NCBI GenBank assembly: GCA_054772095.1
Contig: BAAGAE010000033.1
Location: 4,128,326-4,192,325, forward strand
From: Chamberlinius hualienensis
Taxonomy: Eukaryota
Reading direction: 5' to 3'
Length of the DNA stretch: 64,000 bases
Shown: positions 1 through 45,984 of the stretch, piece after piece
How positions within the stretch are numbered: the first letter of the stretch is position 1
Layout: each line of letters begins with the position of its first letter
Position numbers and translations under genes: made by a program
The notes under the pieces: generated by a model
What the model was told of the DNA's origin: nothing
What the model saw: only the letters and a program-made list of their open reading frames with translations
Databases searched by the model: none

Positions 1-3000
1 CTTTGATATCAAAGTAAAGGAAGTTATAAGCAATATTTTTAGTACAGAATCTAAACGATCAACGTTTTTAGCACCATTGTTAGCAATGCTGGAGAAGTTG
101 GTCGTCAATGGTGTAAGTTCGCATATAAAGTTGTTAATTGCAGTATCTTGCATTTCATTTATTGCATTTTTAGATGGACAAAGGCGAGATTGCCACCAAT
201 TTATTTTTCTTTGACATTATGTTGGACAAATGCAGGTCAATATTTTAACGTTAATTGTTTGTTTTTTTATTAATAATTATTACCTTTCAGAAATTTGAAA
301 CCGGATATGAAGTTTTACTTGTTTGTCATTGCAATTCGCATTTTGGGCATAGATTTAAATGATCAGTCTAACACGTTCGGATCTTTTAAATTTGAAATTG
401 ATGTAAGAAACATTTTTAACTGTCTTGATAATGATAATAGTTTTATATTAAGCATATTTTACACTGAAAGTAAGTTTTGTACTTTTTACACTTAAATAAT
501 AATTAATGTCTTTTTATGTAACCAATTCATTATCGTTCTTTAAGTGTTAGAAATGTGTTGTTTTGAATGGAAACCGCCATTTGCTAACTTATTGATTGTA
601 ATATTGGTTTTTTAATTGATAATAGACGGAGTTTAACGATAATGAAGCTTCTCTTCAGAGTCTTTGGTGCTTATTAGAAGCTGGAAAATATAATTTCTCA
701 CTTGTAATGACTGATGATCATTTCATTATTTCTCCAATTGTTTATTTCCAATCTTTATTACGATACTTATTGTCAACGGTTAAAACCAGGTATTTATACT
801 AGAGTTGTTTGTATATTATTTTACTAATAAATGTCTTTAACTAGGTCTCCAAATTGGTACAAGTGTATTCAATCGCTATTGCTTATTCACTGCAACATTG
901 TTTTCCCCAGTTTGAGAAAATTGCTAAGAGTGGCTTTAGACGTTCGTTTTGATGTATGTATTGTTTAAGTATACAGTATTATATCTTCGTTTTATTAAAA
1001 TTGTCTAATTTACAGGAATCTAACGCTGAAATAGCTACTGAACGAATTAATTTATTGTGCGATCTGATTGATACATATGGTAAACTACGTAGTGTTCCAA
1101 AATTCTTAGAAAACTTATCTTCAGCTGTATGTGCTGATGATCTTCGTCTTTCAGTACGATCATTTTCCAGGAAATGCAGTAAAAAGTATTTTACGCTATT
1201 TTGCTATGTTAAATGAATTTCTAACATTAAAATTATTTAGATTTGCAGAAATCGTTGAATCTATGACTTTAAAATCTAGCTTTGAACTTTGGTTACAAAC
1301 TATGAAATGGATTTCTCAAATTTCAAGTAAGTGTTTTAAGTTATGCTTTGGGACATATTATCACTTTATTTTGCACATTTATTTGTATATTTTAGATCCC
1401 AGAGGTAATGTAGTATTGATTGAAATTCTCAACTGCGTCATAAGCAACGTCCGTGTCCTGCATTCGAATTCATTACTCTCAACTGAAGATATTAAGCAAT
1501 TAGTTAATTTAAGTTATGAAACTTCTACCAAGTGTATTGCTAACTTGTTTAACATGGGGTATGAAGATAATCTGGTAAATAATGCAAATGTGAAATCTTT
1601 TTGGTTTTGATATTAACTAAACTTTATTTTAGAGCTACATTTTGGAAAGTTCTATTCGTTTAGCTGAAAGTTGGGGTGAACTTCATCTTTGTATGCTTTA
1701 TTTTAAACCAAAGTACAGAGAAGAGTGGCATAAGCAACATGAACACGATTGGTCATTATCGAAAGATAGAGATGTGTCTTTGCTTCATTTTTACTTGTCA
1801 CCTGTTATGTGGAAGAAAATTTTGAAACTTGGGAATAGTTCTAAATCCAATAGTAACAGCATCGCATTCCTATATGTAATTTCTCTATATAATTAAGTTT
1901 AATCATTTAATTATGTTGATTCTTTTATTATTTATTTTTTAGAACCGTTTATTGTTGCAGAAATTTAAAATGATTATGCTCTTTGGTGACACTTTGTTCA
2001 AGTCACAAAGTTTACTGCCTGGAACAGAGTTAATCATTGATTTTAATAAAGCTAATATAATGGATTATGTTAAAGTGAACGACTATTGGAATGAAGAAGT
2101 AAACACTTTTAGATTCATTTGAAATTTGACAAATAATACTTGCTTTTGTTTTATTTAGATGCGAGAATTTGATGATGAAAATATTGTTGCTGCAAATTGG
2201 TTATCTCTGTGCAGTTTCTTTCCAACGTTTGTGTCACAGCTAGATGCGACTTTAGCTAATACTCTGGGTGAGTTATTAGTGAATGCACTTACGGTGGCTA
2301 AAGAAAATAGCTCTCTTTTAATTTCGAGTCAAAAACTGCTCGAGTCACCAGAATTTATTGAGAGTAAATCAATGCAGTCTGCAGTAATAACCAGTATTTG
2401 TGAATACTTAATTTCATCGTTGGATGTAGTTGAAGAGAACAGCGAAGTGGAAAGGTTTGACATTTTGACCATTTTGTTTTCTTTTTTTTTTATGTTTTGT
2501 GATTGCCAGTTCTAAAGATATCGCATACTACCTAAGCAATTTAATTGGAAAATTAGTTGTAAAGCCGAATATTTGGATTGAATATGTTGACTCTGTTCCA
2601 AATGCATCGGAAGGGTTAAATTGTATGTGGAAAGCAGCCAAGAAGTCATCTTTAGGATTAAATAAAGTCATGACTGCAGTCATTTCTGGCGATGTTGTGG
2701 TTACGTGTAAAAATTCTATAGACTCACAAATTGGACAACTTGTTAAGGTTTTATAAATACTAACATTTTTATCAAAATCGTATTTTATGATAGTATTTTA
2801 ATAGATAATGCAATTGATGCCTTTGGAATACCTTTTGCCTTGTAATCAAGTTCGTTTGTTACTAGCGAATTTTGGAGTTATTTTATTAAATACTTCGCAG
2901 CAATCATTTACAAAAGAAACTGGGAATATAATACGTGATGCGATTAAAAACATAATCTGCATTTTCGACGGATTTCGTTACGTCCAGATTTTCAAGTTCG

Positions 3001-5171
3001 TCGACGCTAGCATCTTATGCCAATGGTTGTTTCATTCCTTATATCCATCTATATACAAGGTACAATTAATTAATTATTTCATTCGATTACTAGACCGTTA
3101 TAATTTATTATTATTTAGTTGGAAAAGAAAAATTTGGTGTCAACTGATGTCTGTGAAGATCTGAAAAAATATTGTAAAACATTGCTGGAAATTATGATGT
3201 CGATTTTTAAAAGAAGTAGCGATCCTTTTAAAGCCTTGTCTCCGTTTATTTCACAGGTATAAATCTGGTATAGTTGTTTGTTTGAAAGGTTATTAAACTT
3301 CTAATATTTAGATAACATTTTCTGCAGACGATTATGTTACATTTTCAAACTCGGTTACGCTTCTTCAACTATTCCAAAAGGTGAGAATTAGGTGTTTTAA
3401 TTTACTTCATATACAGTATTTATGTTCGATTTTTTTTTGTTCAAAATATCTTAGAATGATTCAAATTCTAAAGAGAATTCGAAGATGATCGCTTATGATG
3501 TCCATTGCGAACAATACCGCCTACAATTAACAAAGAATTTCAAGACTTTTTTTTCGAAGTGTGTTGACAAAGGATTATTAGACGAAATAGTAAATGACGA
3601 AATGAGACTGAGTTATTTACTAGAAGGATTAACTTGCATTGATTACGAAACTGATGGTTTAAAGACTAATTTGGTTGAAGTTGTACATCGTTTAGCCAGT
3701 GAGGTGGCGAAAACTAGTCATAACATGGATTGCCTTCGTCATAGTTGCAGTATTTTGATTCTTCCGTCTTTCCAAGATTTGAAAGACTTCAGCGATTCAT
3801 TCGAAACTGGATGGATATCTTTTACCCGACTATTTGAATTAGAAAGTGACGCTGGGTTAGAAACAGGCCACATTATATTTGCTAACTTAATTAGTAATAG
3901 CACTCCTGAACAATTTGATTGGATTATCCTAAACTTAATTGAGAAAACAGTGAGTCGAAAACATTTTACTTTGCATTCTCATGGTAATTATTAATTTTTT
4001 TAGTCACTCGTGAATGGTGAGAAGATGTTACACGTGACGATCAATTTATGGCGACTTTTGCTACTAAAGCCATTTAAAAATGAAAAATTGGCTGTACTTG
4101 AAAATCATTCCCAAGTGGTTAGTACTTATTGTATACTTGTTTACTATGCACAATTTTGTTTTTAAAATAAGTACCGTAGATAACAAGTGTTTATTGTTAG
4201 TTTGTCGAATTCTAATTGGCACAGTTATTAAATTATATCTACTTAAAACAGGTCCTCGTTCATTTCAGCATGGCTATTGAAGGACTGACTAGCATCTCAC
4301 AACACTTTAATTTAATTAGTGATATTTTAGACTTGGAGACTGTTTTTTGCAAATGTTATAAGGTTCGTTTTCAAATTGGTACGGTATTAGTATAAAATTG
4401 TAAACTTGAAATTTTTTTATTATTTATTAGCTATCTCGAATCTGTCTATCACTTTGCCTACATGGGTGTATTAGGTGCGATTTGAACGTCGTCAATGGCA
4501 CTCCATTTTACTTCAAATTAACCTGTTCTATGTTAAATCTTTTAAATGAAATGTTGGTAAATCAGAGCGCATTTATGTTAAGAGATGTAATGGCCGCATT
4601 TCTACGAGTCGTTCAACATATCCTTTTATTAATTTTTGTTTTATTTCTAATATTTTTTTTACGTATTAACTTAACTCTGTAATTACAGCTTTTAAAATCA
4701 GTTATTCAGAATTGCAATCAGGATCGTCTACTTCAAGCAAATCAGTCTCACTTTAACGAAATTTCTTACACTGCTCAGCAACTGCAACGGTAGGATTAAA
4801 TTGAACTTTAAAAAAAAAGCCTGTTACTAATCATATTTTTATGCTAGACTTTTGACACTTTTCTCCAATTACGAGACTCAGTTTTCAAGAGTTTCCTTTT
4901 GTATTGTTTTATATTACATCGCTGAAGCATCTACTCTTACTCTTCATCCATATCTTAAGGTATGTAAAAAAAAACTCTTATAAATATGTGCCTAATTATA
5001 AATTATTTTTTAAAGCCTGTTTTGTTGGAAGGCATTTATGCCTTGATGAAAAATTTGCATGCACATAATGTTGCTGAAGTTGTAGCAACCCTTAATTCAT
5101 CTGGAAGAGAAGTATTTAGTGTTCTCTATGAAACATATAAGAAGTATTATTTTTACAAAGGAAATGTATAA
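1..5171 (+). CDS. 3' portion of a large multi-exon gene (at least 18 coding exons); identity unresolved, possibly a helical/HEAT-like repeat scaffold protein. The window starts inside the gene.
   Basis: Same-strand ORF segments with no in-frame stops are separated by short AT-rich introns with GT..AG ends. Examples: 295-470, 640-790, 843-950, 1019-1140, 1240-1325, 1400-1570, 1660-1860, 1942-2098, 2159-2456, 2512-2750, 2808-3060, 3130-3260, 3485-3955, 4262-4370, 4690-4790, 4986-5171. The last ORF ends with a stop at 5169-5171 (...YKKYYFYKGNV*), and AATAAA follows at about 5215. I could not assign a family from memory. Confidence 0.55.
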
Positions 5172-6977
5172 ACCGAAAGATTTATTATGTCCTGATACCG
5201 TTTCATTATATATGAATAATAAATTTGATTTATGTGGGTTAATAATGGCGCCAAATTTAAATTAACCGAAGCGATCATAATTATTGCTGTAATCGTTATT
5301 TTGACGGTCATAGTGGCGCCTGTCCATCGAATGGTTAAGGAAAAAAAATCGTGGTGACTACTTGCATAAGATGTCGGTAATACTGTATTTTTAAGAATGG
5401 TTGATAACATTGTACTTATAACATTACAGTACACCAGCGAAAATTACTTTCGTTATTTTTTATATAAGTGGCGATTGACGCATATTTTGGGTTATTGACT
5501 TTTGACTTTATGAGATAAAATATTAGAGTGCGTCATCAACAATATTACGGAGATGGAATACGCAGCTGATTTGTGAATGAATAGATGGCTTAACGCTAAA
5601 TGACCCTCTGTGAGGGTAGTTGCCTGGATGTCTTTGTTTTCCCACCTGTCCACTTGGGGTTGACTTTTGTGAATGACTGATTGCCGGATACGTGGCGCCA
5701 CTTTGCCCTCTATACTGAGGATGGCCGTGTCCTGTCGTTCCGCCTGCATGAACCCTCCCCCTTTTATGCTTTTTAGACGGCGGCAACTAGACGCGGACAC
5801 TAGTCCTGATAAATGGGGTGAAATTGGGCGCCACCTACTTCTTTATATTTTCTTTTGTCTATTTCACAACTTAAATGTACTGTATATCAGATGATTTTTT
5901 ATGCTTTTTTTTACGTTTTGATAATATTTAAGGGGAAAAAAAGTTTAATGATTATTATTAAACTTGTGCGCGATTGGACATGATAAGGGAATGGCGACAG
6001 TCTGGCTCCATCACAAAGTTGATGGCCCACTTCCGCCGTCATGTTGTCTAATACAACACCTGTCCTCCCACTTCCTCTTTCTATCTGACCGCGTCCCGGC
6101 TACTTTTGACTCCCATATTTATAATTACAAATTTGATTGTTGTCTTTTTCCTCACTTTTACATTGTTACGGTAGATGGACATAACTTTGGCGCCAAACAG
6201 ATTAAAATATGTAGTGGGAAATTTTTGGAACAGAAATTGCTAATGGACGGATAAGATTATCACGTGATTAATTAAATGGGTACGAAGAGGAAATGTTGGT
6301 CGTCGTGACTGGTTTAGATTGCTTTTTAGGTCAGTTCAAATATTTGTGAAGTTCTTGAATCACTTTGGTTGCGCGTTTGTATTACTTTCTCTACACTTTA
6401 TATATCTTATAAAATGAACATTAGAAAATATCTCCTTCCCCAAAGTTTCTTATTAAGAGTTCATTGTAAGGACTTAATTGGAGTATTTGCTACGGTTGAT
6501 TAAACTTTTGGTGTGATACCAATACAAATTAAACTTTTGATTATAAAATCTTTTTGTGGTTCATCGTCATATTAATATTTAATTGTGAAATTGAATAGTG
6601 CACAAGTAGTTCCTTGTTCTTATCACAATTAAGTTTACGAAGTTATGTCTACAAACATCATTTTTTATAATTAGTTATTATTTAATTGTCATGGTCATCA
6701 TTTTTATTGCGACTTTTTGTACAGAAGATAAACTTTTATCAGAAGCGTAATTAACGTGAACGTTGGCATTGGTTCAAATCTAAACGTAATTTAATAGGGA
6801 AAAAAAATGTTTTGTTGGTTTATAAATGAGCTGATTCCAACTAATTGAGAAATGGAGATCAAAAATGAAGTTACATATGCTTATTAAAAACGCGCGGCTC
6901 GATGTACGTACAATCAAATGTAATTTGATCTACTATTTACGCAACGCGACCACTCGAGACTAGCGGCGCGCCGAACG

Positions 6978-6995
6978 GTCTAGACAAACCACGTG
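6978..6995. promoter_or_regulatory. Palindromic Smad-binding element GTCTAGAC (6978-6985) followed 4 bp later by the E-box CACGTG(AC) (6990-6995), in the putative promoter of the I-Smad gene.
   Basis: Read directly: ...gaacgGTCTAGACaaacCACGTGACtgttg... The motif lies about 1 kb upstream of the I-Smad ATG, in a GC-richer block (6886-7080). That block ends in a GT donor at 7079 (aaaag|gtaagaat), so it is a possible 5'UTR exon. An SBE next to a TFE3-type E-box is the known TGF-beta-responsive module of vertebrate SMAD7. Confidence 0.5.
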
Positions 6996-7974
6996 ACTGT
7001 TGCACACCAATCGGTGATCATCGCCTGGCGCCATCATAGTTGACGACAGTCAGGTCGAGTCCACATTCCACTTTTGAAAAGGTAAGAATGTTTTCGCAAA
7101 TTTTCTTCATAAATTCAACATTTTATTTTTTGTTAGCTATTACTTTTACAACTGCCGTCAAAAACACGATTTCCATGCCACATTTCTTTTTTTAGAAAAC
7201 ATTCAGGCGTGTGTATACAGCAGAAAGCGATGAAAAAATTATTTTTCGGAAATTATTGGTGAAGAGGGCGGGTTTACAGTTTGATCGATTATCCACTCCT
7301 GGCGGCGTCTGTTTGGCACCAGCCTCGATGGGCCCTTCATTTCGAGGACAGCATACTGCGAGACGCCACAGCGTGGCTGGAGTGATAATGAGAGAAAGAC
7401 GAGCATTGAGGACAGTTTTCTTCTCACGAGAAGAGGTGACCATGTTTGTGTCAACGTTGCAATGTACTTTAGTAACGAAGAAATAAGGACCGGTGATGTG
7501 GAGCAGAATTTACTTATGGTGTATAATTTCGCGCCTGTATGTTACATCCAAGGCGATCGAAGTTAATTGGACATTCGCGTTAAGCTGCTCTGCTCGAAGT
7601 TCAGCGTTCTACGCTTAATACTACGAGAATGCGCACGTAACTTCAGTGTATTTGGATACAGCTCATCCAAAAAAAAAGTTGTTTAGAATACGCCGTGGAT
7701 TTAATCGTATAATTTGGTGTAAGTGAAATTAGGATGTAAATAGGATACGAAAGTGTTTCAATTTGTTAGTGCGAAAAAGCGAAAATTAAAGCTTGCGCAA
7801 AGGCAACGTACGAGTGAAGAGGTGGCCCTGGGAAAGGCGCCACCGACACCGCCGCCACCACCACCATTGTCGCCTCCGACCCAGCAGGCGCCGTCTTCAT
7901 CATCATCTTCAGGCGGAGGAGGAAGAGATTCCTCCACCAAATACACCAGCTTATTATGCTGTAGTTCGTCGTTC

Positions 7975-10900
7975 ATGTTTCGCTCTAAGCGAAACGCTCT
8001 GGTAAAGCGCTTGTGGAAATCAAGAATTCGCGCCGACTCCATTAATAATAGTCATCATCGGCGTCAACAACAAGGATCTGATGAGGAGCATAATGAAACC
8101 CAGGGTTCGTTTGCGAATAGCACAACTGCACAAGAACAAAGTGACGGGGCGACGGTGGTGGTGGATATGGAGTTAAAATCGGTGGCTCATTCCTTACTAA
8201 AACGTTTGAAAGAAACGCAGTTATCTTTACTAGTCGAAGCTGTGGAGAGTCGTGGTGGAGGCCCTCCAACAGGCTGTGTCTTGGTGCCCAAAGGTGATAT
8301 CAGAATAGGACGGAGGATTGTTTTGCCCCACGTTTTGTGTTGTCAACTGTGGAGATGGAGTGATGTCACACAACCTTTTGAGCTTAAACGTTTGGCATGT
8401 TGTAATACTCCACTGGATGACCCAGCATATGTTTGTTCTAACCCATACCATTGGTCAAGACTGTCACAACCAGGTACAAATACGAATTGATAATTAATCA
8501 GATTCACGATCGAAATTTGTTGTGAGTAGATCTTTTACTTGTACATGCATATAACTTGGACATTCGAAGTATCGAAAGTTCATTCATTTCGATATACTGT
8601 ACAGCGGTAGTTTTGTTCGAGATTAGAACTCAATTCCGAAAGAGAAAAACCTTGATTTTTAACGGTTATACAGTAGTTAGCGGTGAACACTTGAAGTACA
8701 GTAACCAATATTCTAGTTGTTTTTGTATTAACAATAATAGTATGAATGGTATTCTACTGCCAATATAGTTTCCAGTGTCCTATAACTGTTTGACAGAGTT
8801 TGGACCAAAATTAAGGTTGGAAGTTTAAGACCTAAATGTAAGTTTTAAATCATTTTAAAAAATCAGGTTAATTTTAAATCCTTCACATATATTTGTAGTA
8901 ATTTATTAGCCGTGGTAGTTTAGTTTATTAAAAATGTATCGAGATGTCACGTTTTTATTAGGTTGGTCACTATCTATGTACTATGTAAGTTTAATTGGAA
9001 TTTTACCAACAGCTAAACTTAGCACTAACTTGTTATCAAGATCTGCATCAACGCTGCTTTCGCACGTGTCCCCTAAATTACAGTACGAAATTATTTTGAA
9101 ATTTTAAATTTTCTTGGAAGAGCACGTGCAAATTAATGGTTCGATTCAGGGAAAATACTTTGACGAACTATAAATATAAATAACATGTCAACGACTAAAT
9201 TGCAGATCGAAACAGTACTTGTATTCTATGGCAGTGGACATAAAAGATGATTTATTAACTTTTAGCTGCGTAACATTCACGAATAATAGAAAAACTTAAG
9301 TTTGAGGTTTAATTTTATTTCAAAGGACGAGTTAAATTGTTATCAACAAAAATCACTGTTGATTAATTTTTGTCAGCGGCCATAACGACGTCATGTCAGT
9401 TCACGTACTGCTTGTTTCGATAACGTGGTTGTCTATTTATACGACACTCGGTATAATAGTTAAAAATGCGTTTCATAACCTACAAGTTGAATGTTATTGT
9501 ATGCGACGTAATCCCCTTTACTTTAATAATTGAAATTTACTTTGTTGTTATACATGTCATTCTGCGTGATAATAGGACATATTATTATGGCTAACTTAAT
9601 TGTTGACCGGTGTGTTCTATTTAATTTAGATTAGGGGAGAAAAAGTTTGCCGATTTTAGATGAAAAGTTTTTGCCTTCTGCATATGAACTTAAAAGGGTG
9701 CAGAGACAAGAAGTTTCTCTCGTCTTCTCTATTCTGCATTTATTTTGACTGGTTTCATTGATAAATGGAGAATTTGATTTTCTTAAAACAGCGATAACAT
9801 TTTTTATTTCGGATGAAATGTGATCGATATTAATTTCCCAAGTTCGAAGCTAACAGATCAAAGTTGATTTTATTCGCATATCGGTGAACTTCCTGTTCTC
9901 GTATTCTGTTTGCTAGATAGTAGTTAAATGTTTTTCGTGACATATTATTAGATGACACCGTTTATACGAAATTATGTGTTGTACCGAGGAGATAGAGGGA
10001 GAAAGAGTGAGACAAAAAAAACGAATTTTTTAATTTTTGTGAAGCATAAATAGTGGTGTTTGTAGATATGAAGGGCGCTGTAGACTTTTGAGAAGGCGCC
10101 GTGTCTACTCTCTGGCGTCATTCAGTCGCTTCTCTTGCGAATGAAGGGCGAGTGAAAGAAGGCGTCTTGGAGGCTGAACAAAGAGAGCGCGAGTGGGTGG
10201 CCTATGCTTATGACCCATAGGGAAAGGAGATGGTAGGGAGGGTGAATAGCAAGGGGTCACGTGACCCACCCCTCGCAACAATAACAACTTTCGACCTTAA
10301 ACAAAATATTTGAGAAACGGCACACTAGGCAACTTTTAAGTGTACGGTGTAAATAGGACTCCAAAAAAAAATAAAAATATTCGTTATCTCTACTGTATAG
10401 CATAATTTTAAAGAATTTGTTTTTACGAAACTTTCATTATATGAAGTTACTTATTCAGGGAAATGTTTTCTTAAGAATAAACAAAAATCGGCTGATGCTT
10501 TGCCTGACTTATCTTGGCTCCATTCAAACCACTTGTAATTCGTCTACTGTCGGTGCTGATTTTAGTTTCAAATTTGAATAAATTTCTCGAAGATGTTTGG
10601 AAAAGTTCTAAGAAATTGAAAATAAAGTTGAAACATCTTATTTCTAGTAAAATCTGAATTTTCAGCGTTTCACATGTCGGTGTTGTGGTTATTTTTTTAA
10701 ATGAAATTCTGAAAAGTAGGTTAAATGTGGTGTATCAGGTTGAAAGGCTAATTTTGATCGGTCTCTTTTCGAAACTTTAATCAAGTGTTGTAATAATAAT
10801 AGTATTTACTAAATGAACTTTGTTCTGTTTTTGTTTCGCAGAGTCTCCACCACCGTACACCAGGTGTGCTCTCGATTGGATAGCGCCAGAAGGTGAGTTT

Positions 10901-12579
10901 CTTGCGTACCTACAGACCCGCAATTTCAAACAATACACACGCAATAAAATACAAAAAAATAAAATATTATTTCCGTGAAATTTTATTTTTAAACTTGTTG
11001 GACGTACTTTTCGAAGTTAAATGGAGTTCTTAGTAAGAAATTAAATTAGTTCGAGCAGTACAAATAATTTCATTGCACTGTTTGTAAATTATTTTGGAAA
11101 CTTATTTTGTCAATTTCAATGTAAAAGTAATTTTTTTTATTAAAGTGCAATGAAATGTGATGTGTATTATGTTTGCAAGCGAATGTGTGTAAATTATGCA
11201 ATTATATTTAATTTTAATAATATTTTTGATTAATTTCAGATGTAGGAGAGTTAGATCCGGTGTCAGTGGCCACGGGTGGAACCAATCAGTTCGCTTCCTA
11301 CAGCAGCAATCCTCAAGGTAAAGATAACAGAATAATACCATTTCTATACACAATACAAAACGTTTGAAGGACCATGTGAAGGGTTTACTTAAAAATTCTT
11401 TTGAAATCTCTCTCCTGAACTTGAAAAGGAACTGCGTGTAGAAAATGGTCTTTTCCGACATTGTCATTTGTAAATAATAACTATAAAGGTGAGGTTGAAT
11501 ATAGATTTACATTTTACAGATAGTCTGAGATAGAGCTTGTATTTTTGCTTATTTAAGAGATGAAAGGTAGAGAATACAGGGTGAATACACAACTGCCTTT
11601 AGTTTCTTCAAATCGTAATAATGTTTGAAGTTCTCCCCTTCTTTTATACCGAGTTCTTGCCTCTCCCTCACTACGAAACTCACCTTTTAATATTTTGTTC
11701 ATAATCAACTTTGGGTTCATCTTGAAAAGGAGAAAAAATATTTGCGGGAGAATGAGATTGATCGTTTTGTTTCTCCTGGATATGTCCTCCACTTCACTTT
11801 GGAATGCCAATTTAGTTCCCCTTGAGTAAGGGGAAGAGGAGTTACTTAAGTTTTTTTTTTTCTCTTCACCACCAATACCACCTTCTCGCGCTTGTCCCCC
11901 CTCGTACTTCTCCTCCGAGTTTTTCTTCCCTTTTAAAGTTTATTTACATTCGTCTGAAGTAGAAGAAAAGCCTCTCTCGGTCATTGCAATTAAAAGAAAG
12001 CGACTCTCAAAAGAGCAGACGTCATCTTAACTTCTTAAGGCTGAGCCTCACGACGCACTCGTGTGATCTAAACTATTGTTTTTTTTTCTTCCTGTAAAAT
12101 TAGTTTTATGACAGGGTTAAAAATATTCAATAAGCTTCATTTATTTTTGTTTAAAATTACATACTTTTTTTAAGCTAGTATAAAATGGGGGAGAAACATC
12201 GGTGGGTCTTTTTATTATGTTCAGTTTATAAGAGAAGATTGGAACTAAGCTCCGTTTTCAAGGGAATGCGCAAAGGGTGAGAGGGGAAAGGGTCGAATAC
12301 GTCAAGGATTTCAACTTGTTTATATAAATTAATAATTTTGTCATCTACAACGATAGCACTTTGCGGAATATCAAACGATTTGATCACGTGATCTCCATCT
12401 TTGTATTTCCACTATTACAGTACGTGTTCAATTAGTGACATTACTACTTAAATAACCTCTACGAATATTTTATTGACAACATGATGCGCTATTTGTGACC
12501 AATGTCGAATACTGATGTAATTTCGTACGTGTAACATGACCTCATAATGTTGGCATTTTCAAGACTTTAATTTTTTTTG

Positions 12580-15600: not shown

Positions 15601-17546
15601 AAAAAAAGAAAGAACACGCAAAGGAATTTCGAGTTGAGGCCTATCCAAGCGACTCCCTGTAGGACAATCCAATCATTCACAAAATGCTTGTTTTTCCCCC
15701 ATTGATGCTTTATTCCTCTCACTAGAAAAGTTGTTATTCTATCATTGAAGGCCTGCTATTGATTGTAAACAGGGAATCCGTGTTCGGTTGTTGACAAAGG
15801 AATTTTAAAGGATTAAATAGTGGATTATCTTTTCTTCTTTTTTTTCCCGCTCATCCTTTCTCCACTCCTTCTTACGTTATAGGTTGTCATCATCTACATT
15901 TTCGACGTGACCCACATAACTTCTAACAATTTAGTTCGGATTTAACGTTGCGTTTGAAAGGGTTTAGGAATTCACTACTACAAAATTATGTAAACATTAG
16001 GATTTCGAATTATGTGTTAACGTACGGAATAATAATCAGCAATTCACTCAGTAGTCGTATCGTGGCTTTATTTCGTAACAAAAAAAAAGTTTTTCAGTGC
16101 GTGCAATTTTAAATTTGATAAAGTTTTTAATGAGTTTAAAAATTTCTGAATAGTTAAAATATCGCTTACGACATCGTAATGTTAGGTATTTTAATAATTT
16201 CTATGCTTAAAATTGGTTGTTGATGTAACAGTGAATAATATAATGGCGGCCATGTGGAATGTAGAAATTAAAACTTTTAAGCTGAAATTTGTGTGATGGT
16301 ACCCTAGTGTACAAAAGGATGGGGTGGAGTGGCCAAATACCTGTTTACCTAGCTACCACCTCATCATTCTCGTTTTTTCTTTACGTCGGTTTGTTTTGTC
16401 TTCAAACAAGTTTTTCTTTCTCCTTTATTTTCCTCTTCAAGTGTTTTTGTCTTTATCATCACTCAAAGGTATTCTAGATTGTAATCGGAGAAGAAATCTT
16501 AATAGTCGTTGACCACTCCTTCGGCTATTAACTCCACCTCTGTAGACTCATGTTTAGATCGAAACAGTCAAACAAACGTGCGTTTAAAACATATTTTCAG
16601 TTGAACGGATTGACAATTGGATTTTTTTGTGAAAATTATTCGATTTTTATACTCATTCCCCATGTTTCTAAGATTCTAATTTCGAGTTTTTACAGTGCAG
16701 TATTTGGGGAATTAAAAGATAGTTTTCTTATCTAATCGTTATATTTGTAATCAGTCAAGAGTGGGGAATTTTTTTGGCTGAGGAATTTGGTCTTAGCCGA
16801 GCTTTACTCTAATTTTACAAACATTGACACGAGTCTTCTAAAAATAAATATTTACAAGTTTTACAATAAAAAAAAATAAAAATAGTTTTAACTGCTTTTG
16901 TAATTAAAATGTTTTTTTTTTTTTTTATTTATTTATGTATTTTTTTTTTATAGGTATAAATGGTGAAATTGAAAATTCGAAAAACTACTGGTGTTCCTTG
17001 GCCTATTGGGAGCTGCGAACTCGGGTTGGGCGACTTTTTCCGGTGCATAAAAACATGATCAATGTGTTTTCCGATCTTCCTCACGGTGAAGGCTTATGTT
17101 TGGGAACTCTTGCCAAACAGAACCAAAGGATCAGTGAATCTGTTCGTCGGACAAGAGAGAAAATTGGACTGGGTCTTAGTATAAGCAACGAACCTGATGG
17201 TGTTTGGGCGTATAACCGATCCGATAACGCCATATTTGTGAACTCGCCTACCTTACAACCCCCTTCTCAAACTTTACATGCTCCATTATCAAGACCATCT
17301 TTCACCGTATACAAAGTCCCTCCCGGTTACTCCATCAAAGTTTTTGACTTTGAAAAATCTCGTCTGTACCAAAAGATGGACAAAGAACTGAGTAAGAAGA
17401 ACGATGGAGAAGCTACCACCGATGGTCCTTTTGATCCCAACTCTGTCAGAATAAGCTTTGCCAAGGGATGGGGACCCAAATACTCTAGGCAAGTCATCAC
17501 TTCGTGCCCTTGTTGGCTGGAAATTCTTTTGATTCCACCGAGATGA
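7975..17546 (+). CDS. Smad6/7: Inhibitory Smad (Smad6/7 orthologue). CDS join(7975..8473, 10842..10892, 11240..11317, 16954..17546), about 406 aa. An alternative in-frame upstream ATG at 7753 would add a 74-aa Pro/Ser-rich extension.
   Basis: Exon 1 encodes [17 protein letters not shown] (compare vertebrate Smad7 MFRTKRSALVRRLWRSR). It also contains [29 protein letters not shown] and [10 protein letters not shown], which are hallmarks of the I-Smad N-domain. Exon 2 encodes ESPPPYTRC, the PY motif. Exon 3 encodes ...[10 protein letters not shown]. Exon 4 encodes an MH2 domain ([17 protein letters not shown]... [13 protein letters not shown]), close to Smad7 WCVVAYWEEKTRVGRLY...CPCWLEVIFNSR. 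All junctions are GT/AG with phase 1: 8474 gtacaa; 10839-41 cag; 10893 gtgagt; 11238-39 ag; 11318 gtaaag; 16951-53 tag. The summed CDS is 1221 nt, divisible by 3. Confidence 0.9.
10256..10265. promoter_or_regulatory. Perfect palindromic CLEAR/E-box motif GTCACGTGAC in I-Smad intron 1, inside a GC-rich island (about 10060-10290).
   Basis: Read directly: gcaaggGGTCACGTGACCcacccc. Related palindromic CACGTG sites lie at 6259-6266 (aTCACGTGAt) and 12376-12385 (gaTCACGTGAtc), plus CACGTG at 9066 and 9124. Confidence 0.35.
12577..12612. repeat. Poly(T) homopolymer of about 36 nt in I-Smad intron 3. A poly(A) of about 25 nt lies at 13351-13376.
   Basis: Direct reading of the sequence. Confidence 0.9.
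13530..13612. repeat. Copy of a short dispersed repeat family. A second copy lies at 60455-60512, and a partial match to its 5' end lies at 60161-60180.
   Basis: 13548 tatactcggagccacttagtaaaggcatatgtaaatttatcattgactttttgcctttataaag against 60449 tatactcgaggtcacttagtaaaggcacatgtaaattcgtcattgactttggcctttagaacg, about 88% identity over about 60 bp. The gtctaaatgact motif recurs at 13530 and 60167. Confidence 0.5.
14200..15100. promoter_or_regulatory. GC-rich island inside the 5.6-kb I-Smad intron 3. It contains a perfect CRE, TGACGTCA, at 14486-14493 and further TGACGT(C) sites at 14905 and 15070. Candidate intronic enhancer or alternative promoter.
   Basis: Base composition shifts clearly relative to the flanking AT-rich intron. 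Overlapping junk ORFs occur on both strands, which is typical of a GC island. The motifs were read directly. Confidence 0.3.
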
Positions 17547-27093: not shown

Positions 27094-29861
27094 CTATTGA
27101 GAAAAATTATTTTTTGAAGCGTTAAACAGCCTAATGTTTTCGGCGTTCCAGTACAAGTTGGAGGAGTTGTATACAAGTGACCAAACATATGGGATAAAGA
27201 ACTCTTCAGGTTGATCTTCTTCTACATACTTAAACTTTAAATCAGGGAATTTCTATAATAAAAATGCTACCGGTAATTGTGATGACCCACTAGAAAATAT
27301 GCCCAATTATTTACCATAAATCTGTCTCCAGGCCATTGCATCGAGCCTTCCTGAATAATTTGAAGCACATCATCTGCGGACAAATCTTTATTAGCAGCCT
27401 CCAGTTTGCTAGAGAAATAAGTGAGTACCTATACCGATAAAAATTGATCACACAAGAGAGCATAAAAAAGATTTTATTAAATGTCCACTAACTGTTTCAA
27501 TGTTTTGGATGATGTCCTGAAACGTCGGATGATTTCTGAACTGCTCAAAACACTCTCTCTTGTATAGAAGTGTATAAATAAGATGATTACTGTGAATCAG
27601 TTGATTACACAGACATGAATTAATTATTTCCAAAACCATTCGTAACACTTCCTCCAAAACAGCTAAATCTTGCAACTTAAAAAAAAAACAACAAATTGAT
27701 GCCAATTTTTAAATTGCACACTTAAAATGTACCAAGTCAGCAGCCAGATTTTCTTCGTCTGGATCTTGCGACTCAGTGGCAGTTTGCAGCTGTTCCATTG
27801 AACGATGGTGTCTCTTGGCCAAGCTTTCAAAAAGTCCAACTATCCTCTGAGCCACATAAACATGAAGATCTCGAAACTGGCTGGACATATTTGCTAATGC
27901 GGCCAAACAGTTGGTATGCAAATATTTATCCTTTAACCCAGGCGAATAAGATTATAAATCATTTAAAAGAAATTTTTAAAAATAAAATGTACCCGCATTC
28001 TAGTCATGTTAAACTGGATGGTTCTTATCACTACTAATATCAGAAGCCCACCTAGAGAGACTGACGAAAGACTTCGTTCTGTGTACCACGTGACTCCTTT
28101 TAAAACCTAAATAAGATTATATGACCATTTTGCTTTACCAAAAAAAAGTAATAAAAAATTTGCTACCATACCGATTGATGAACTGCCTTGTTAAATAATT
28201 CATCTTCTGAAAGAATCAATAATATTATAAGGGCCATATAAATGTGATGAGAATTGCGATCGTTAGCTTGATATAAAATTTTTAGTATTGGTACAACCTA
28301 TAAAAGAAATTGTATTTTTATACAAATATTAATATAAAAGCATGTTTGCAAATGCCAACCAACCAGCTCTTCTATATCGGCACGAGATAATATATATGTT
28401 CTGAAATGTTGATTACGATGTAATAGTAAATATAGCAGTAGAGTTGTTTGATCATCTTTCATTGTGCTGCATAATGTGGTAAAAACTTGGGAGTAATCAA
28501 TTTTAAATGTAGCCACCGCTTGCGTTGGACTACCACTACTCGAATCCTGCGAATTAGTAAACGAAAATAGTGCCTGTCGATAAGGGTTGTGGCAAGATTT
28601 TTCGTTTGTACAATGATTTGTTAAAACCAGAATCAACAAAAGGCTCTGATTGGCAAGTAGAGCGTCATCATGCTGCTCACTGTTGGGACGTCCTCTGTAA
28701 CCTAACGTCAATATACTCCATATTCCAGCTATAAATCAATAGCTTATTCATTAAATGATTTGAATTTCATATTTTAGGTTACGGCATTACAAGCAAGACC
28801 AAGCACAAAACTTCCACTTCCAGCATTTCTCTGAAAAGTTGGTGGGCATTTCAGCTGAAGAATATAATTATGAAGAAGCGTTTTCATCAGAAGGCACGCG
28901 TGAATTGCACTGCAAATCAATCGGAACAATTAAAAACTTAAAAAAATAACTAGCAAGTAACCCGCTACAATTTACCACTTTCCCATCATCATCGATTTAT
29001 AAATATGCGATTTGACAGCCAAACTTTGAGTGAACATGTGCACTGATAGCAACACTAATAAAGCGTTGATTGCTTCTAAATGGATAGCATAAGTAATTTC
29101 TCTAAAATAAAATAAATAAATGTTAATGGGTATATATTTGCATACATATTCGACCAAAGTCAAACATATTATTACACTACTGGGACGTCGACGAGCAGTT
29201 CCAATAAAGCATTCTGGAATAATTCCAACATTGATTCTGGTTCTTCAGTTACTTCTCCTACATTTTAAATGTAAACATCTCGACAGCAAAAAGATATTTG
29301 CAAAGTAATACCATCTTTGGAGGTTGAAGAAACTTGAAGCTGTTTAATAAAACTGTCTTCCGTAATGGTCTCTAAGAAAAATTTGCAAACACAACGCAAT
29401 ATGAAAAGAGCATTGTATGTCTGCCAGATGAAAACAGAGCTTAAAAATTGATATTTTATATTATTTTTAATAATCTCAGCAAAACTAAATTAACCAGTTA
29501 CTTGAAGCATTGAGTGGACGTCTTCAGCTCGCGAGCTCGAGTCAAAAATACTTTTAAAAGTGAAGCTACATTTCCTGTTTGTAAATTATTTGTGAGCAGA
29601 ATTTTGCATAAAGATAGGGTGCTCTCTTCTAATAAGCGATAATCAGCGCTGTTGGTGAAATGGATTTAACATGATACAATTAGATCATTTTAGAGCATAC
29701 GTTTTAATTTCACGGTACCTATTCTGTGGAGGGAGAAAACTAAATGACAACAGCTGGTTCCAAAAAGGGTCATTAAACGAAATAGCTTCTCGTCCAACAA
29801 ATCTTCTCAAATATTCATTATCCTTAAGTTCTCCTATACTTGTGCTACTGTTTGCACCCAT
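27094..29861 (-). CDS. DYM: Dymeclin (DYM) orthologue. It is a compact gene of about 10 or more exons. Mapped exons (minus strand, + coordinates): exon 1 29718..29861 ([42 protein letters not shown]...); an exon within 28972..29163; an exon within about 28366..28711 (...[13 protein letters not shown]...[10 protein letters not shown]...[28 protein letters not shown]); an exon within 27709..27921 ([19 protein letters not shown]...); exon A about 27450..27675 ([21 protein letters not shown]...[10 protein letters not shown]); exon B 27315..27407 ([31 protein letters not shown]); last exon 27094..27252 ([43 protein letters not shown]...*).
   Basis: Each exon translation matches vertebrate dymeclin segments, for example MGSNSSRIGDLPKNEYL...[28 protein letters not shown]...[49 protein letters not shown]...[26 protein letters not shown], and [30 protein letters not shown]. 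The N-terminal MG... fits an N-myristoylation start. A polyA signal (AATAAA on the minus strand) lies at about 27076-27081. Confidence 0.85.
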
Positions 29862-31558: not shown

Positions 31559-33987
31559 TTAGTAGTCTTTATCGTCCTCCTTTGCAGCCATAAAAAGTTT
31601 CTGAGTAGCAACTGTTACTGAATCTGAAACATCAAATTTGGGTTAATTGCAATTAATTCTATAAAGTTGAAAAAATAACTAAATTTGATTAGACTTGACA
31701 GTTTGAAATTGAAATTCAGCTACTTCAGACTACACGTTACAATTTGTGTAGTATTCGATATTAGCAGATTATCATTCAATATTTTTACTATTCTGATAAT
31801 GGCAATTATCTGCATTATTTATTGCAGACAAGAATAATCAAACTAAGATATGAATATAAAAAGTACCCAAAAATCTTAATAGTCCTGCTGGTTTATTCGT
31901 CCAATATATAAAAAGATAATAAGCTGGTACACCAGTTGCAATGATAGCCAACCCCATTCCTACTGTCAACGGTTCAGCATATAACGGCAAACAGATCAGA
32001 AATGCACAAATTATTAAAAATGTGATTGGCACCACCGTCATTACCTGCAACGAATACTTGGTTAAAAAATGTATACTTTTAAATAATTCATACAAACAAA
32101 CTTTAATTGGACGTTCTAAATTGGGTTTCTTCCATCGAAGATACAACAATCCGGCCACTGACACAGCAATAAAAAATGATTCGACAAAACTACTGTAATT
32201 AATCAGTACAATAATATCGCCAGTCACCAACATAAGTAATGACATGAGTCCCTAAAAATTAAAAAAAATTAAAAAAATATATATCAGACTAAACATGCAA
32301 GTTTATTGTATACTAAAAATATTAAAGCTGGAGTTGGAGTTAGCTTAGTCATGCTTATCATAGCAAGGCTGGAAGGAAAATGCCCTTGACGTGCTCCAAC
32401 AAAACAAATTCTAAAAGTAAACAAAACCGTTCAATTAATTTATTTTAATTAGTGGTACTGTACACCCAACATGGAGTGTAGCATAAATAATTGTAAAAAA
32501 AAACAATACTAATAGTTCCCTATTTTAACTAGCTATTTATAAGCCATAAACCTGATGTTTAATAAATTACCTGGCTGAAGTGAATATGTGGACCGTTAAG
32601 CCTCCTATTGTAGAACCAGCAACACAAACTGGAATAATCCACCATAAATATGACGGTAGCTTTTCACCAAACGTCTAAATAATAAAAAAGCAGCTAAATT
32701 TCAACATGTTTTAAAATTAAACCACCAAATATTACCACTGCTACAGCTGCAGAAGAAAGAACTTCATACGGAGATAATAGAGTAAAATAAGCTACGTTGG
32801 CCAAAATGTAAATACCCGTTATAATCGGCATAGAAATCCATATGGCACGAGGCAAATTTCTGTTAATCACTGATTAATGAAAACGTTGTCGTCAATTTAA
32901 AAAGTATTTAATATCGAAAATAATTACACGTAAGGATCTTTCATTTCTTCCGTGACAAAATTTAAGTAATTCCTGTTAGCAAGGATAAAAGAATATTTTT
33001 AGTTGTCATATCGATACCACATATACTGTATATAAACCAGGAACTTACCATCCTGTAAACGAAAATATTCCGGAATAAAAAGCCACTGATATGCTTCCAG
33101 GATCCGTGATTGTACCATGGAAGCTATTGTGAAAGTACTCAGTTTTTCCTATTCATCGTGCAGATAAAAAACGTTAAAATTTTTTATTATAACATTGCAT
33201 TTCTAAAAACCTTGTCCAATATAAACCATGCCAGCTATGATGATGAAACCCAACGCTACAATTTTGAAAATCATAAAGCCGTCTTGTAGTTTGGTAGTCC
33301 ACTTTACGTTATAGCAATTCAAAAACGTCAATAAACCTAAGTAATTAAAAATATGGTTATAGTAAACATCAAACGTTTAAACATTTACGGTAACAATACT
33401 TAAATTTTGAAATTTAAATGTACTTAAGTAATCGATAATTACAATTGAAACTTACAAATAACAATTGCTGCTATTAACCGCACTGCTTGATCAGGTGGTA
33501 AACAAGTTCCATAAAATGGCTGCAAAATGTAGTTAGCAAATGTCAAAGCCGTAATGGCGTTAGTGCAAGGTATAAACACCAAACTGGCCACCCAAAGATA
33601 AAGAAAAGCAGGTAATGCGCCAAAAGCTTCTAGGATGTAGACATAGTCTCCCCCAGATTTTGGAATTGTTGTTCCCAACTCAGCATAACATAGAGCTCCA
33701 AGGGTAGATAAAAGCCCACACAAAACCCAAATGATGAGAGATAATCCAACAGATCCAGCTGACTTAAGAACACCCTTAGGTGTGATGAAAATACCTGAGC
33801 CAACAATTATGCCCACAATAATTGCTACACCCTCCAACAAGCCAATCTCTTTTTTCATCCTGACAGAAGTTTCATTCTGATTTCCAGATTCTTTATTCCG
33901 CTTGTTTAAAGGTTCTATAACCGACAATTCGGTATCTGGTTCCATGATAGTCTTATTTGATATTGAATCTGAATAAATATAAAACAT
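31559..33987 (-). CDS. SLC7-family heteromeric amino-acid transporter light chain (LAT / y+LAT / b0,+AT-like), with about 12 or more exons. The start is at 33987 or 33945 (MEPDTEL...). The last exon is 31559..31623 (...[20 protein letters not shown]).
   Basis: Minus-strand ORFs carry several transporter signatures. ORF 33439-33987 has [88 protein letters not shown], the canonical SLC7 TM1-TM3 signature. ORF 31838-32245 has ...ELERPIKV / [22 protein letters not shown]...[11 protein letters not shown] 56-nt intron (donor aag|gtttgt, acceptor ttgcag|gta) interrupts that ORF at about 32050-32105. Additional exon-sized coding blocks at 32560-33320 were not individually mapped. Confidence 0.85.
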
Positions 33988-45500: not shown

Positions 45501-45984
45501 TTTGAAACTGCTGTTGAGGTATCTGCTGCTGTTGAGCTCCAGATGGTGAATGAACAGCAGTAGGTGCCGCAACTGAATTAGTGTGTCCCGTAATCGGGGT
45601 CGATGCATGATGTGATGCTATAGTTAACGAATGGTGCTGTAAATGAACAGCCGAAGAAAGAGATGTTGATGTTTGACCACCAGTTCCAACTACTCCCCCA
45701 GCAGTAATATTCCCCCCTCCACCACTACTACTATTGCTGCTACCACCACCACTACCTCCACTTTGCGATATACCAGTCGTAATCTGGTAACTCTGCATGG
45801 GGTACTGAATACTACTTTGCATGTTCCGAGGCTTAGATTCACTACCAGTCGATTTAGTCACAATGTGGGTAGCTGCCACCGGTGTTACCAGACGGCAGCC
45901 AACTTCTTTACCAACCCCACGGATCGCGTAATTAAATGAACTACTTGCAATAATGTCGTGATGGTCGTCAAGGCGACGTTTCAT
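39596..45984 (-). CDS. SIN3: Sin3 (paired amphipathic helix co-repressor, SIN3A/B orthologue). ATG at 45984 (MKRRLDD...). Domains by position: PAH1 about 45082-45480; PAH2 about 44343-44897; Ser/Gly-rich linker 43784-44200; PAH3 about 42843-43100; HDAC-interaction domain 41971-42540; Sin3a_C/HCR 39596-41660. There are at least 15 exons.
   Basis: Minus-strand ORFs match Sin3 along its length. Examples: [40 protein letters not shown] and [22 protein letters not shown] (PAH1); [14 protein letters not shown] + [15 protein letters not shown]...[27 protein letters not shown] (PAH2); [30 protein letters not shown] (PAH3); [58 protein letters not shown]...[20 protein letters not shown] (HID, near-identical to human SIN3A); [31 protein letters not shown]; [29 protein letters not shown]; KMVYVVKSE...C-terminus. 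A 53-nt intron at about 39835-39887 is read through in-frame by the ORF track. A 5'UTR exon at about 46215-46275 is indicated by the donor caggtgagttt on the minus strand. Confidence 0.9.

Follow-up and report, generated by a model that had tools for sequence, protein, structure and literature searches.

Is the promoter DNA through which Smad signalling induces its own inhibitor conserved between vertebrates and invertebrates? This question is raised by a 64,000-nucleotide stretch (hereafter the window) of contig BAAGAE010000033.1 from Chamberlinius hualienensis (assembly GCA_054772095.1, positions 4,128,326 to 4,192,325). The window contains a single inhibitory Smad (I-Smad) gene, Smad6/7, which is the pro-orthologue of SMAD6 and SMAD7, and a palindromic Smad-binding element (SBE) followed by an E-box is located upstream of it. 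An earlier note on this DNA had proposed that the pair repeats the grammar of the SMAD7 autoregulatory element of vertebrates upstream of an invertebrate I-Smad gene. This proposal is borne out, and even strengthened, by alignment, in which the DNA around the pair can be lined up with the SMAD7 element base for base. We estimate at roughly 80% the probability that the segment 6920-7013 is a Smad-responsive proximal promoter module of Smad6/7, orthologous to the vertebrate SMAD7 SBE/E-box element, that would provide negative feedback.

The Smad-binding palindrome and its E-box

Direct reading places the palindrome GTCTAGAC at 6978-6985 and the E-box CACGTGAC at 6990-6997, separated by the four bases AAAC (6986-6989), as the earlier note had described. 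The palindrome occurs nowhere else in the window, also as claimed. It lies 997 bp upstream of the Smad6/7 start codon (7975) on the same strand, in agreement with the distance of about 1 kb given before, and the surroundings are indeed GC-rich (50% in 6886-7081 vs 32% in 6000-6885).

The statistical argument of the earlier note did not hold. It had put the expectation for the 8-mer at fewer than 0.1 copies per 64 kb, but dinucleotide-preserving shuffles gave a mean of 0.36 copies per window and at least one copy in 30 of 100 shuffles. The 8-mer by itself is therefore not significant, and significance of the lone palindrome was rejected. The E-box CACGTGAC is enriched in the window, with 8 strand hits at 6 sites vs 0.83 expected, and no shuffle reached 8. 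These sites are at 4031, 6990, 10256-10265, 28087, 39753-39762 and 49921, and two of them are perfect GTCACGTGAC palindromes, a USF/MiT-TFE 'CLEAR'-type motif. The sequence CACGTGAC may be a common promoter or enhancer motif of this genome. The composite of an SBE with CACGTG within 10 bp has an expectation of about 0.0016 per 64 kb by analytic estimate. In the window and the fetched loci combined (379 kb), it was found only at the block described below, with no more than one copy per locus.

Conservation of the block upstream of inhibitory Smad genes

Orthologous loci were fetched through a homologue search with the MH1 exon, and the SMAD7 loci of a cetacean and a catshark were reached through a second search with human SMAD7 as the query. 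The resulting alignment A3 contains 14 sequences, which include the window, contigs L002, L004, L005, L011 and L012, the L013 group, sea urchin, scorpion, catshark and cetacean. The SBE/E-box pair is embedded in an alignable block of about 80 bp composed, in order, of a bZIP-like site TTACGCAA, AGAC, a GC-rich Smad site, exactly 5 bp, GTCTAGAC, 3-4 bp, CAYRTGA and CCAAT. Alignment to orthologous I-Smad promoters, a check that the earlier note had suggested, recovered the block in sea urchin, catshark, cetacean and other invertebrates, and its core in scorpion.

Three invertebrate contigs from ENA assemblies (L002, L004 and L005), whose MH1 domains are about 50% identical to that of the window, and the Smad6-like locus of the sea urchin Lytechinus pictus (L007; MH1 43% identical) each contain exactly one GTCTAGAC, 0.7 kb upstream of the ATG. 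The palindrome stands in the string TATTTGCGCAAC-AATCA-..AGAC..-CCGCGCC-N5-GTCTAGAC-N3/4-CAYRTGAY-...-CCAAT. The SMAD7 block of the catshark reads TGTTTGCGTAACAATCACTTTAAACCGGGGGCCGCGACTCAGTGTCTAGACGCACACGTGATCCACCGCGCCAAT, with the core ...GCCGCGAC-TCAGT-GTCTAGAC-GCA-CACGTGAT...CCAAT, and that of the cetacean reads ...TGTTTGCGAAACACAATCGC(T)n..AAAGCGACAGGGTGTCTAGACGGCCACGTGACG, with the core AGCGAC-AGGGT-GTCTAGAC-GGC-CACGTGAC. The published human SMAD7 SBE probe AGCGACAGGGTGTCTAGACGGCCACGTGA (PMC5889486) is contained verbatim in the cetacean string. In the scorpion Centruroides sculpturatus, a protostome, the core alone (TAGCGCC-CGTCG-GTCTAGAC-GGT-CACGTGAG) lies 355 bp upstream of a Smad6-like ATG, and the flanks of the block are not retained at this locus. 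Across the compared loci, the palindrome of the block (core only in scorpion) is 0.36-1.8 kb upstream of the I-Smad ATG, and the orientation of the block relative to the gene is the same in all of them. The bird SMAD7 locus (L006) gave neither the composite nor a profile match, but it contains 5,009 N and is uninformative.

All 14 sequences agree in the columns G-C-G-.-C at the GC site, in a spacer of 5 bp after it, in each of the eight positions of GTCTAGAC and in CA..TGA at the E-box (Table 1). The E-box itself varies among CACGTG, CATGTG and CACATG. The spacer between SBE and E-box is 4 bp long in the window, L002, L004, L005 and L011, and 3 bp long in sea urchin, L012, the L013 group, scorpion, catshark and cetacean. 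This single-base insertion may be a clade marker, and it bears on how strict the spacing requirement between Smads and basic helix-loop-helix (bHLH) factors is. The conserved part of the GC site is CGCGCC (6967-6972). The whole site GGCGCGCC has GGCGC, the 5GC motif, on both strands, and the bottom-strand copy abuts the spacer; the canonical palindrome GGCGCC is absent at this position (6965-6972). The bZIP-type site takes the forms TATTTGCGCAAC, TGTTTGCGTAAC or TGTTTGCGAAAC elsewhere. In place of the upstream AGAC half-site, catshark has AAAC and cetacean a run of T, and the CCAAT box is degenerate in cetacean (CCACT) and absent in scorpion. A further palindromic GC-SBE downstream, TGGCGCCA, is apparently lineage-specific. 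A weaker conserved motif, G(A/T)AA(C/T)NNGAT(C/A), was also observed at 6920-6930, just upstream of the bZIP-like site (GTAATTTGATC, GTAATGTGATC, GAAACCCGATC and GAAACTCGATC in window, catshark, cetacean and scorpion, respectively).

Over about 80 columns, the window is 48-68% identical to the other sequences, with 57% for catshark SMAD7 and 49% for cetacean SMAD7 (alignments A2 and A3). An nhmmer profile built from six other species, including catshark and cetacean SMAD7 and with the window left out, matched 6927-7017 at E = 1.2e-11; the next best match had E = 0.54. The block is the only stretch of 6000-10838 that is conserved with the other loci. A 19-base core pattern (CGCGCC-N5-GTCTAGAC-N3/4-CAYRTGA) matched 10 contigs among 241 million metagenome records. 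The full block, bZIP-like site and CCAAT included, was present in each of the 10, and an I-Smad MH1 exon followed 0.2-1.3 kb downstream on the same strand in all eight contigs that were long enough. No match to the pattern was found in 596 Gb of prokaryotic genomes. The combination is accordingly not a common feature of random DNA, a frequency that the earlier note had named as the way to refute its claim. The sequence, position, homology and specificity of the block are established by these comparisons.

A group of divergent metagenome contigs carrying the full block (L013-L020; JGI Ga01263xx and ENA OFEQ/OFHQ/OFEP/OMLO) was noticed among the loci. In this group, the I-Smad N-terminus is unusual (MFKLLRLVSKL...; ...VCINPYHYS) and follows the block after only about 300 bp, and a second GTCTAGAC occurs 135 bp downstream of the first (on the reverse strand of L013, at 1675 and 1810). 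These contigs may come from a non-bilaterian host, e.g., a coral.

Table 1. Positions of the features discussed, in coordinates of the window
Feature	Position	Strand	Evidence
Conserved block, putative I-Smad proximal promoter	6920..7013	+	nhmmer match 6927-7017, E = 1.2e-11; alignments A1, A2, A3
bZIP-type site TATTTACGCAAC (C/EBP/PAR-like TTRCNNAA)	6934..6945	+	T..TTT.C..AA columns near-invariant, 13/14 sequences
AGAC, upstream SBE half-site	6957..6960	+	AGAC there in most invertebrate sequences
GC-rich Smad site GGCGCGCC	6965..6972	+	G-C-G-.-C columns invariant, 14/14
Spacer between GC site and GTCT, GAACG, 5 bp	6973..6977	+	length 5 in 14/14, sequence free
Palindromic SBE GTCTAGAC	6978..6985	+	8/8 bases invariant, 14/14 sequences
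Spacer between SBE and E-box, AAAC, 4 bp	6986..6989	+	length 3 or 4 across the alignment
E-box CACGTGAC with conserved 3' A flank (CAYRTGA)	6990..6997	+	CA..TGA invariant, 14/14
CCAAT box (NF-Y type), CCAATCG	7007..7013	+	CCAAT in 12/14, at similar distance from E-box
Additional palindromic GC-SBE TGGCGCCA	7026..7033	+	direct reading; not aligned or conserved at other loci
Putative 114-nucleotide intron (GTAAGA...TTTTTTTAG)	7082..7195	+	GT/AG ends, polypyrimidine tract
5' untranslated region contiguous with coding exon	7662..7974	+	collinear with spliced RNA contig L001
Smad6/7 coding exon 1 (MH1)	7975..8473	+	Pfam MH1, E = 2.2e-25; donor supported by L001
Open reading frame with last Smad6/7 exon (MH2)	16935..17546	+	Pfam MH2, E = 2.3e-49; homologues found

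Proposed function and its alternatives

[quoted passage not shown] Receptor-activated Smad/Co-Smad complexes would bind the palindromic SBE GTCTAGAC and also the GC-rich site exactly 5 bp upstream, a spacing typical of BMP-type Smad1/5-Smad4 composites. On the adjacent CAYRTGA E-box, a MiT/TFE- or USF-type bHLH-Zip factor would cooperate with the Smads, while the bZIP site TTACGCAA and the NF-Y CCAAT box that flank the core would give basal promoter activity. Signalling would thereby induce the pathway's own inhibitor, which constitutes negative feedback. An E-box limited to CAYRTG with an invariant 3' A belongs to the MiT/TFE spectrum (TCACGTGA/TCATGTGA) rather than to that of Myc/Max, and this range together with the 3' A points to a MiT/TFE-type factor at the E-box. 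The assignment of a bZIP factor to 6934-6945 is suggested by known bZIP consensus sequences. CCAAT boxes are usually located upstream of the transcription start, and the block is regarded as a proximal promoter because its CCAAT box (7007-7011) would normally have this place. The input to the module is probably of the BMP type and possibly of the activin type; the architecture GC site-N5-GTCT would indicate BMP-type input at least as much as TGF-beta-type input.

Published work on the component sites has been considered. The MH1 domains of Smad3 and Smad4 bind the GTCTAGAC palindrome (PMC3185416). The palindromic SBE takes two Smad2/3/4 MH1 domains and is their preferred double site, the 5GC motif is defined as GGC(GC)|(CG), and a 5-bp spacing between GC-SBE and SBE is required for BMP responsiveness (PMC11907993). 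BMP4 induces the smad6 gene of sea urchin also when translation is blocked; the gene is likely a direct target of BMP2/4 and acts in negative feedback (PMC3009687). This induction supports the proposed function indirectly, the block being carried by another urchin, Lytechinus.

Several observations weigh against the proposed module. Between SBE and E-box, the window has 4 bp vs 3 bp in vertebrates, urchin and scorpion. According to Hua et al. (1999), a 3-bp spacer is reportedly critical in the PAI-1 element. At the GC site, the window has CGCGCC and not the canonical GGCGCC, and vertebrate SMAD7 has GCGAC at this position, so the BMP-type reading of the site is a presumed one. Since CACGTGAC is enriched in the window, the factor at the E-box could be a common promoter factor and not a Smad-specific partner. 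In the hemipteran Homalodisca vitripennis (L008, GCA_019364655.1), neither GTCTAGAC nor a profile match was found within 10 kb upstream of the annotated start of a Smad7-like gene. The element is therefore not universal, and it may have been lost or moved in this insect.

Another explanation is that the block is purely a BMP response element, in which Smad1/5 (Mad) and Smad4 (Medea) use the GC site-N5-GTCT and the E-box and second half-site have no TGF-beta/activin-TFE3 role; the use of TGF-beta and TFE3 in vertebrates would then be a later co-option. The 5-bp spacing, invariant in the alignment, is a hallmark of BMP-responsive composites and of the Drosophila silencer element (PMC11907993), the urchin gene is a likely direct BMP2/4 target (PMC3009687), and invertebrates have kept GCGCC (5GC) where vertebrate SMAD7 has GCGAC. 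The 8-bp palindrome and CA..TGA of the E-box are, however, as invariant as the GC site, which is hard to explain by use of GTCT alone. Palindromic SBEs are, moreover, the double site preferred by Smad2/3/4 (PMC11907993), and urchin smad6 at high dose antagonises Nodal targets too (PMC3009687). A pure BMP element is a possible but rather unlikely reading.

The block could also be a conserved basal promoter core (bZIP, E-box and NF-Y) whose SBE is not signal-responsive, being either unused or the site of constitutive repression of the Smad4/Ski type. CCAAT and bZIP-like sites do stand on the flanks of the core, CACGTGAC is common in the window, promoters conserved among bilaterians are rich in CCAAT boxes and E-boxes (Frith & Ni, PMC10735318), and a repressive Smad4-c-Ski complex has been reported on the SMAD7 promoter (PMC11063908). 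Yet the most invariant columns are those of the Smad sites (GTCTAGAC with 8/8 bases, GC site and N5 spacing) and not those of CCAAT or bZIP, and the scorpion has kept the core and lost both flanking sites. A purely basal core is thus improbable.

That the conservation reflects a function of RNA, the block being transcribed, as the earlier note had suggested, within a first exon of the 5' untranslated region (5'UTR), is very improbable. The GT...AG pair at 7082/7195 could delimit a short intron after such an exon, and RNA function has been raised as a general possibility for conserved promoters (Frith & Ni, PMC10735318). RNAalifold, however, detected no conserved structure in the block (consensus -1.05 kcal/mol) and essentially no covariation (term of -0.1). 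What is conserved consists of palindromes or known transcription-factor motifs at fixed distances, with free sequence in the spacers, the vertebrate element is described as Smad-bound promoter DNA, and a CCAAT box is, as a matter of general knowledge, normally upstream of the start site. Accidental co-occurrence of GTCTAGAC and CACGTGAC within a GC-rich patch, which could draw on the ordinary frequency of the palindrome and the abundance of the E-box, has next to no credibility given the rarity of the composite, and it is refuted by the window-free profile search and by the pattern scans of metagenomic and prokaryotic DNA.

As judged from the alignments, the block is an invertebrate orthologue of a known cis-regulatory element, and the promoter DNA of this feedback inhibitor appears to have been retained since before the protostome-deuterostome split. 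A wider history can be proposed tentatively, with the balance tilted slightly towards doubt. The I-Smad module of about 80 bp (bZIP, AGAC, GC site, N5, GTCTAGAC, N3/4, CAYRTGA and CCAAT) would have stayed alignable since before that split, possibly since the cnidarian-bilaterian ancestor if L013-L020 are cnidarian. The TGF-beta-responsive SMAD7 SBE/E-box of the textbooks would then descend, in vertebrates, from an ancestral element for Smad-to-I-Smad feedback that had the BMP-type GC-N5-SBE architecture. If this is true, it would be one of a small handful of feedback loops in signalling for which the cis-regulatory DNA itself can be followed across more than 550 million years; no description of it in such form is known.

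Vertebrates and protostomes share extremely little alignable regulatory DNA (about 25 segments, PMC10735318), and the vertebrate counterpart of this block, the SMAD7 autoregulatory SBE/E-box, is functionally well dissected. Because the vertebrate function of the conserved DNA is known, ancient feedback inhibition of TGF-beta/BMP signalling becomes testable at the level of base pairs; the interest of the finding lies in this direct testability and in the rarity of alignable regulatory DNA of known function across Bilateria. The features that are invariant across mammals, shark, urchin, scorpion and the window (Smad sites, 5-bp spacing and adjacent E-box) form a natural mutagenesis table. With the profile or the 19-base pattern as a probe, the promoters of I-Smad genes can be located in assemblies that lack annotation, and virtually no false positives arise. 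The element also offers a route to questions about its partition between SMAD6 and SMAD7 and its loss in some insects.

Gene model, neighbouring features and known Smad elements

The RNA contig L001 (Logan SRR29905061, from a related species with about 90% nucleotide identity) is collinear with 7662-8473 and then with 10839-10892 and 11238-11300. Consequently, at least from 7662 onwards, no intron interrupts the 5'UTR. Farther upstream, the GT...AG pair at 7082/7195 could be a candidate short intron after a putative first exon; its GC content is 28%, vs 50% upstream and 46% downstream of it. The closest homologues of Smad6/7 are Logan contigs (MH1 98%, MH2 87%). The best named match of MH2 is that of the centipede Strigamia (61%), and vertebrate SMAD6 reaches about 60%. 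Contig L001 ends in an Illumina adapter (AGATCGGAAGAGCACACGTCTGAA, 919-942). Its open reading frame P0001 (280 aa) is not a true protein, since it starts in upstream non-coding sequence and its end is adapter-truncated.

A cluster of Smad-type motifs (GTAGAC, GGCGCC-GT-GTCT and GGCGTCT) beside the palindrome GGGGTCACGTGACCC was observed in intron 1 at 10080-10270. It could be a candidate lineage-specific intronic Smad-responsive enhancer, comparable to the BMP-responsive element of SMAD7 intron 1 or to Drosophila Dad13, and it has no similarity to the other fetched loci. About 11 kb downstream of Smad6/7, a dymeclin exon is present on the minus strand (28298-28711; Pfam Dymeclin, E = 4e-29). 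Human DYM is the neighbour of SMAD7 on 18q21, and the proximity of the two genes may be conserved microsynteny; no match to the dymeclin open reading frame was found within the flanks of the other loci. The window also carries an SLC7-type amino-acid permease (33439-33987) and Sin3 (41971-45984), both on the minus strand. Several long open reading frames (118-169 aa) at 1131-3994 on the plus strand are apparent exons of a large upstream gene, the 3' end of which bounds the upstream region of the I-Smad gene. The two that were tested (2159-2515 and 3485-3994) had no Pfam match, and an Rfam scan of the window gave no match.

Several known Smad elements have been compared with the block. The PE2 element of PAI-1 consists of an SBE and an E-box that, according to Hua (1999), are reportedly bound by Smad3/4 and TFE3. 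It resembles the block in that an SBE adjoins a CACGTG E-box, and the cooperation of TFE3 with Smad3 is a model for the pair. It differs in belonging to another gene, in its non-homologous sequence and in the 3-bp spacing reported as critical, vs 4 bp here. This element is listed in PMC11063908.

Among BMP-responsive elements, Dad13 of Drosophila is, as reportedly described by Weiss (2010), an intronic enhancer of Dad with activating element (AE) motifs and Mad/Medea sites. In both cases an I-Smad gene is, or would be, directly induced by its own pathway, which results in negative feedback, but Dad13 is intronic and uses AE motifs; we know of no alignable similarity between the two sequences. 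The AE consensus GGCGCCA(N)4GNCV is not found at either GC site of the window. The sequence GGCGCCA at 7027-7033 is followed by TCAT and then AGTT, and on the reverse strand GGCG and ATGA occur, so neither strand provides GNCV. The Drosophila silencer element (SE) consensus GRCGNC(N)5GTCTG, also written GNCGNC(N)5GTCT, is not matched by CGCGCC-N5-GTCTA of the window, which lacks the first G as well as a G behind GTCT; an A stands there instead, so the Schnurri-recruiting GTCTG is absent. BMP composites of the Id1 type (GC-SBE-N5-SBE) share the GC-rich Smad site exactly 5 bp from GTCT, found in 14/14 sequences. They differ in that the 6-mer CGCGCC lacks the first G of GGCGCC/GNCGNC and in that the SBE of the window forms a complete palindrome and is coupled to an E-box.

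Of the published surveys of regulatory DNA conserved across bilaterians, the most sensitive has identified 25 segments, none of which was found in fly (Frith & Ni 2023, PMC10735318). One segment near chimaera smad6 matches octopus DNA beside a smad6 homologue (PMC10735318). Like the block, these segments are promoter-type DNA shared by vertebrates and protostomes and rich in CCAAT boxes and E-boxes, but the segment in question is assigned to vertebrate SMAD6 and not to SMAD7. In the supplement text of PMC10735318, from which some figure captions and sequences were lost in conversion, neither 'smad6' nor the hallmark strings of the block occur, and 'gtctagac' is found only in the Znf503/703 figure. 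The Smad6 segment may be related to the block, and deep conservation of I-Smad regulatory DNA may thus be published in part already. The literature that was searched contained no report of an SBE in the promoter of an invertebrate I-Smad gene, and no paper in it links the SMAD7 SBE/E-box to such promoters.

The closest counterpart is the SMAD7 element itself. It lies just upstream of the transcription start, at about -180 in mouse, and is said to have been studied as the SBE/E-box element of the vertebrate SMAD7 proximal promoter by Nagarajan (1999), Denissova (2000) and Hua (2000). The window differs in having one single gene as the pro-orthologue of both SMAD6 and SMAD7. Four bases (AAAC) separate SBE and E-box here vs three in vertebrates (GGC in the human probe), and the GC site, CGCGCC here, reads GCGAC in vertebrates. 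In mammals, a run of T is inserted and CCAAT is degenerate. The ATG follows the element at 1.0 kb in the window, at 0.84 kb in catshark and at 1.8 kb in cetacean. In the vertebrate element, TFE3 and Smad3 act synergistically (Hua 2000, as cited in PMC11063908 and PMC5889486), and the adjacent E-box, for which an E-box mutant construct was used, is needed for full activity (PMC5889486). Among vertebrates, the SBE/E-box has been called highly conserved (PMC4321984). In the window, too, a perfect GTCTAGAC precedes a CACGTGA(C) E-box, the pair stands upstream of an I-Smad gene and is oriented like it, and the flanks are alignable, with TTTGCGnAAC upstream, GCG.C exactly 5 bp before the SBE and, in catshark, CCAAT downstream. 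With the exception of the 3-bp spacer, all of the features of the SMAD7 element that can be read from sequence are present, and the proposed logic, in which the pathway would induce its own inhibitor, is the same.

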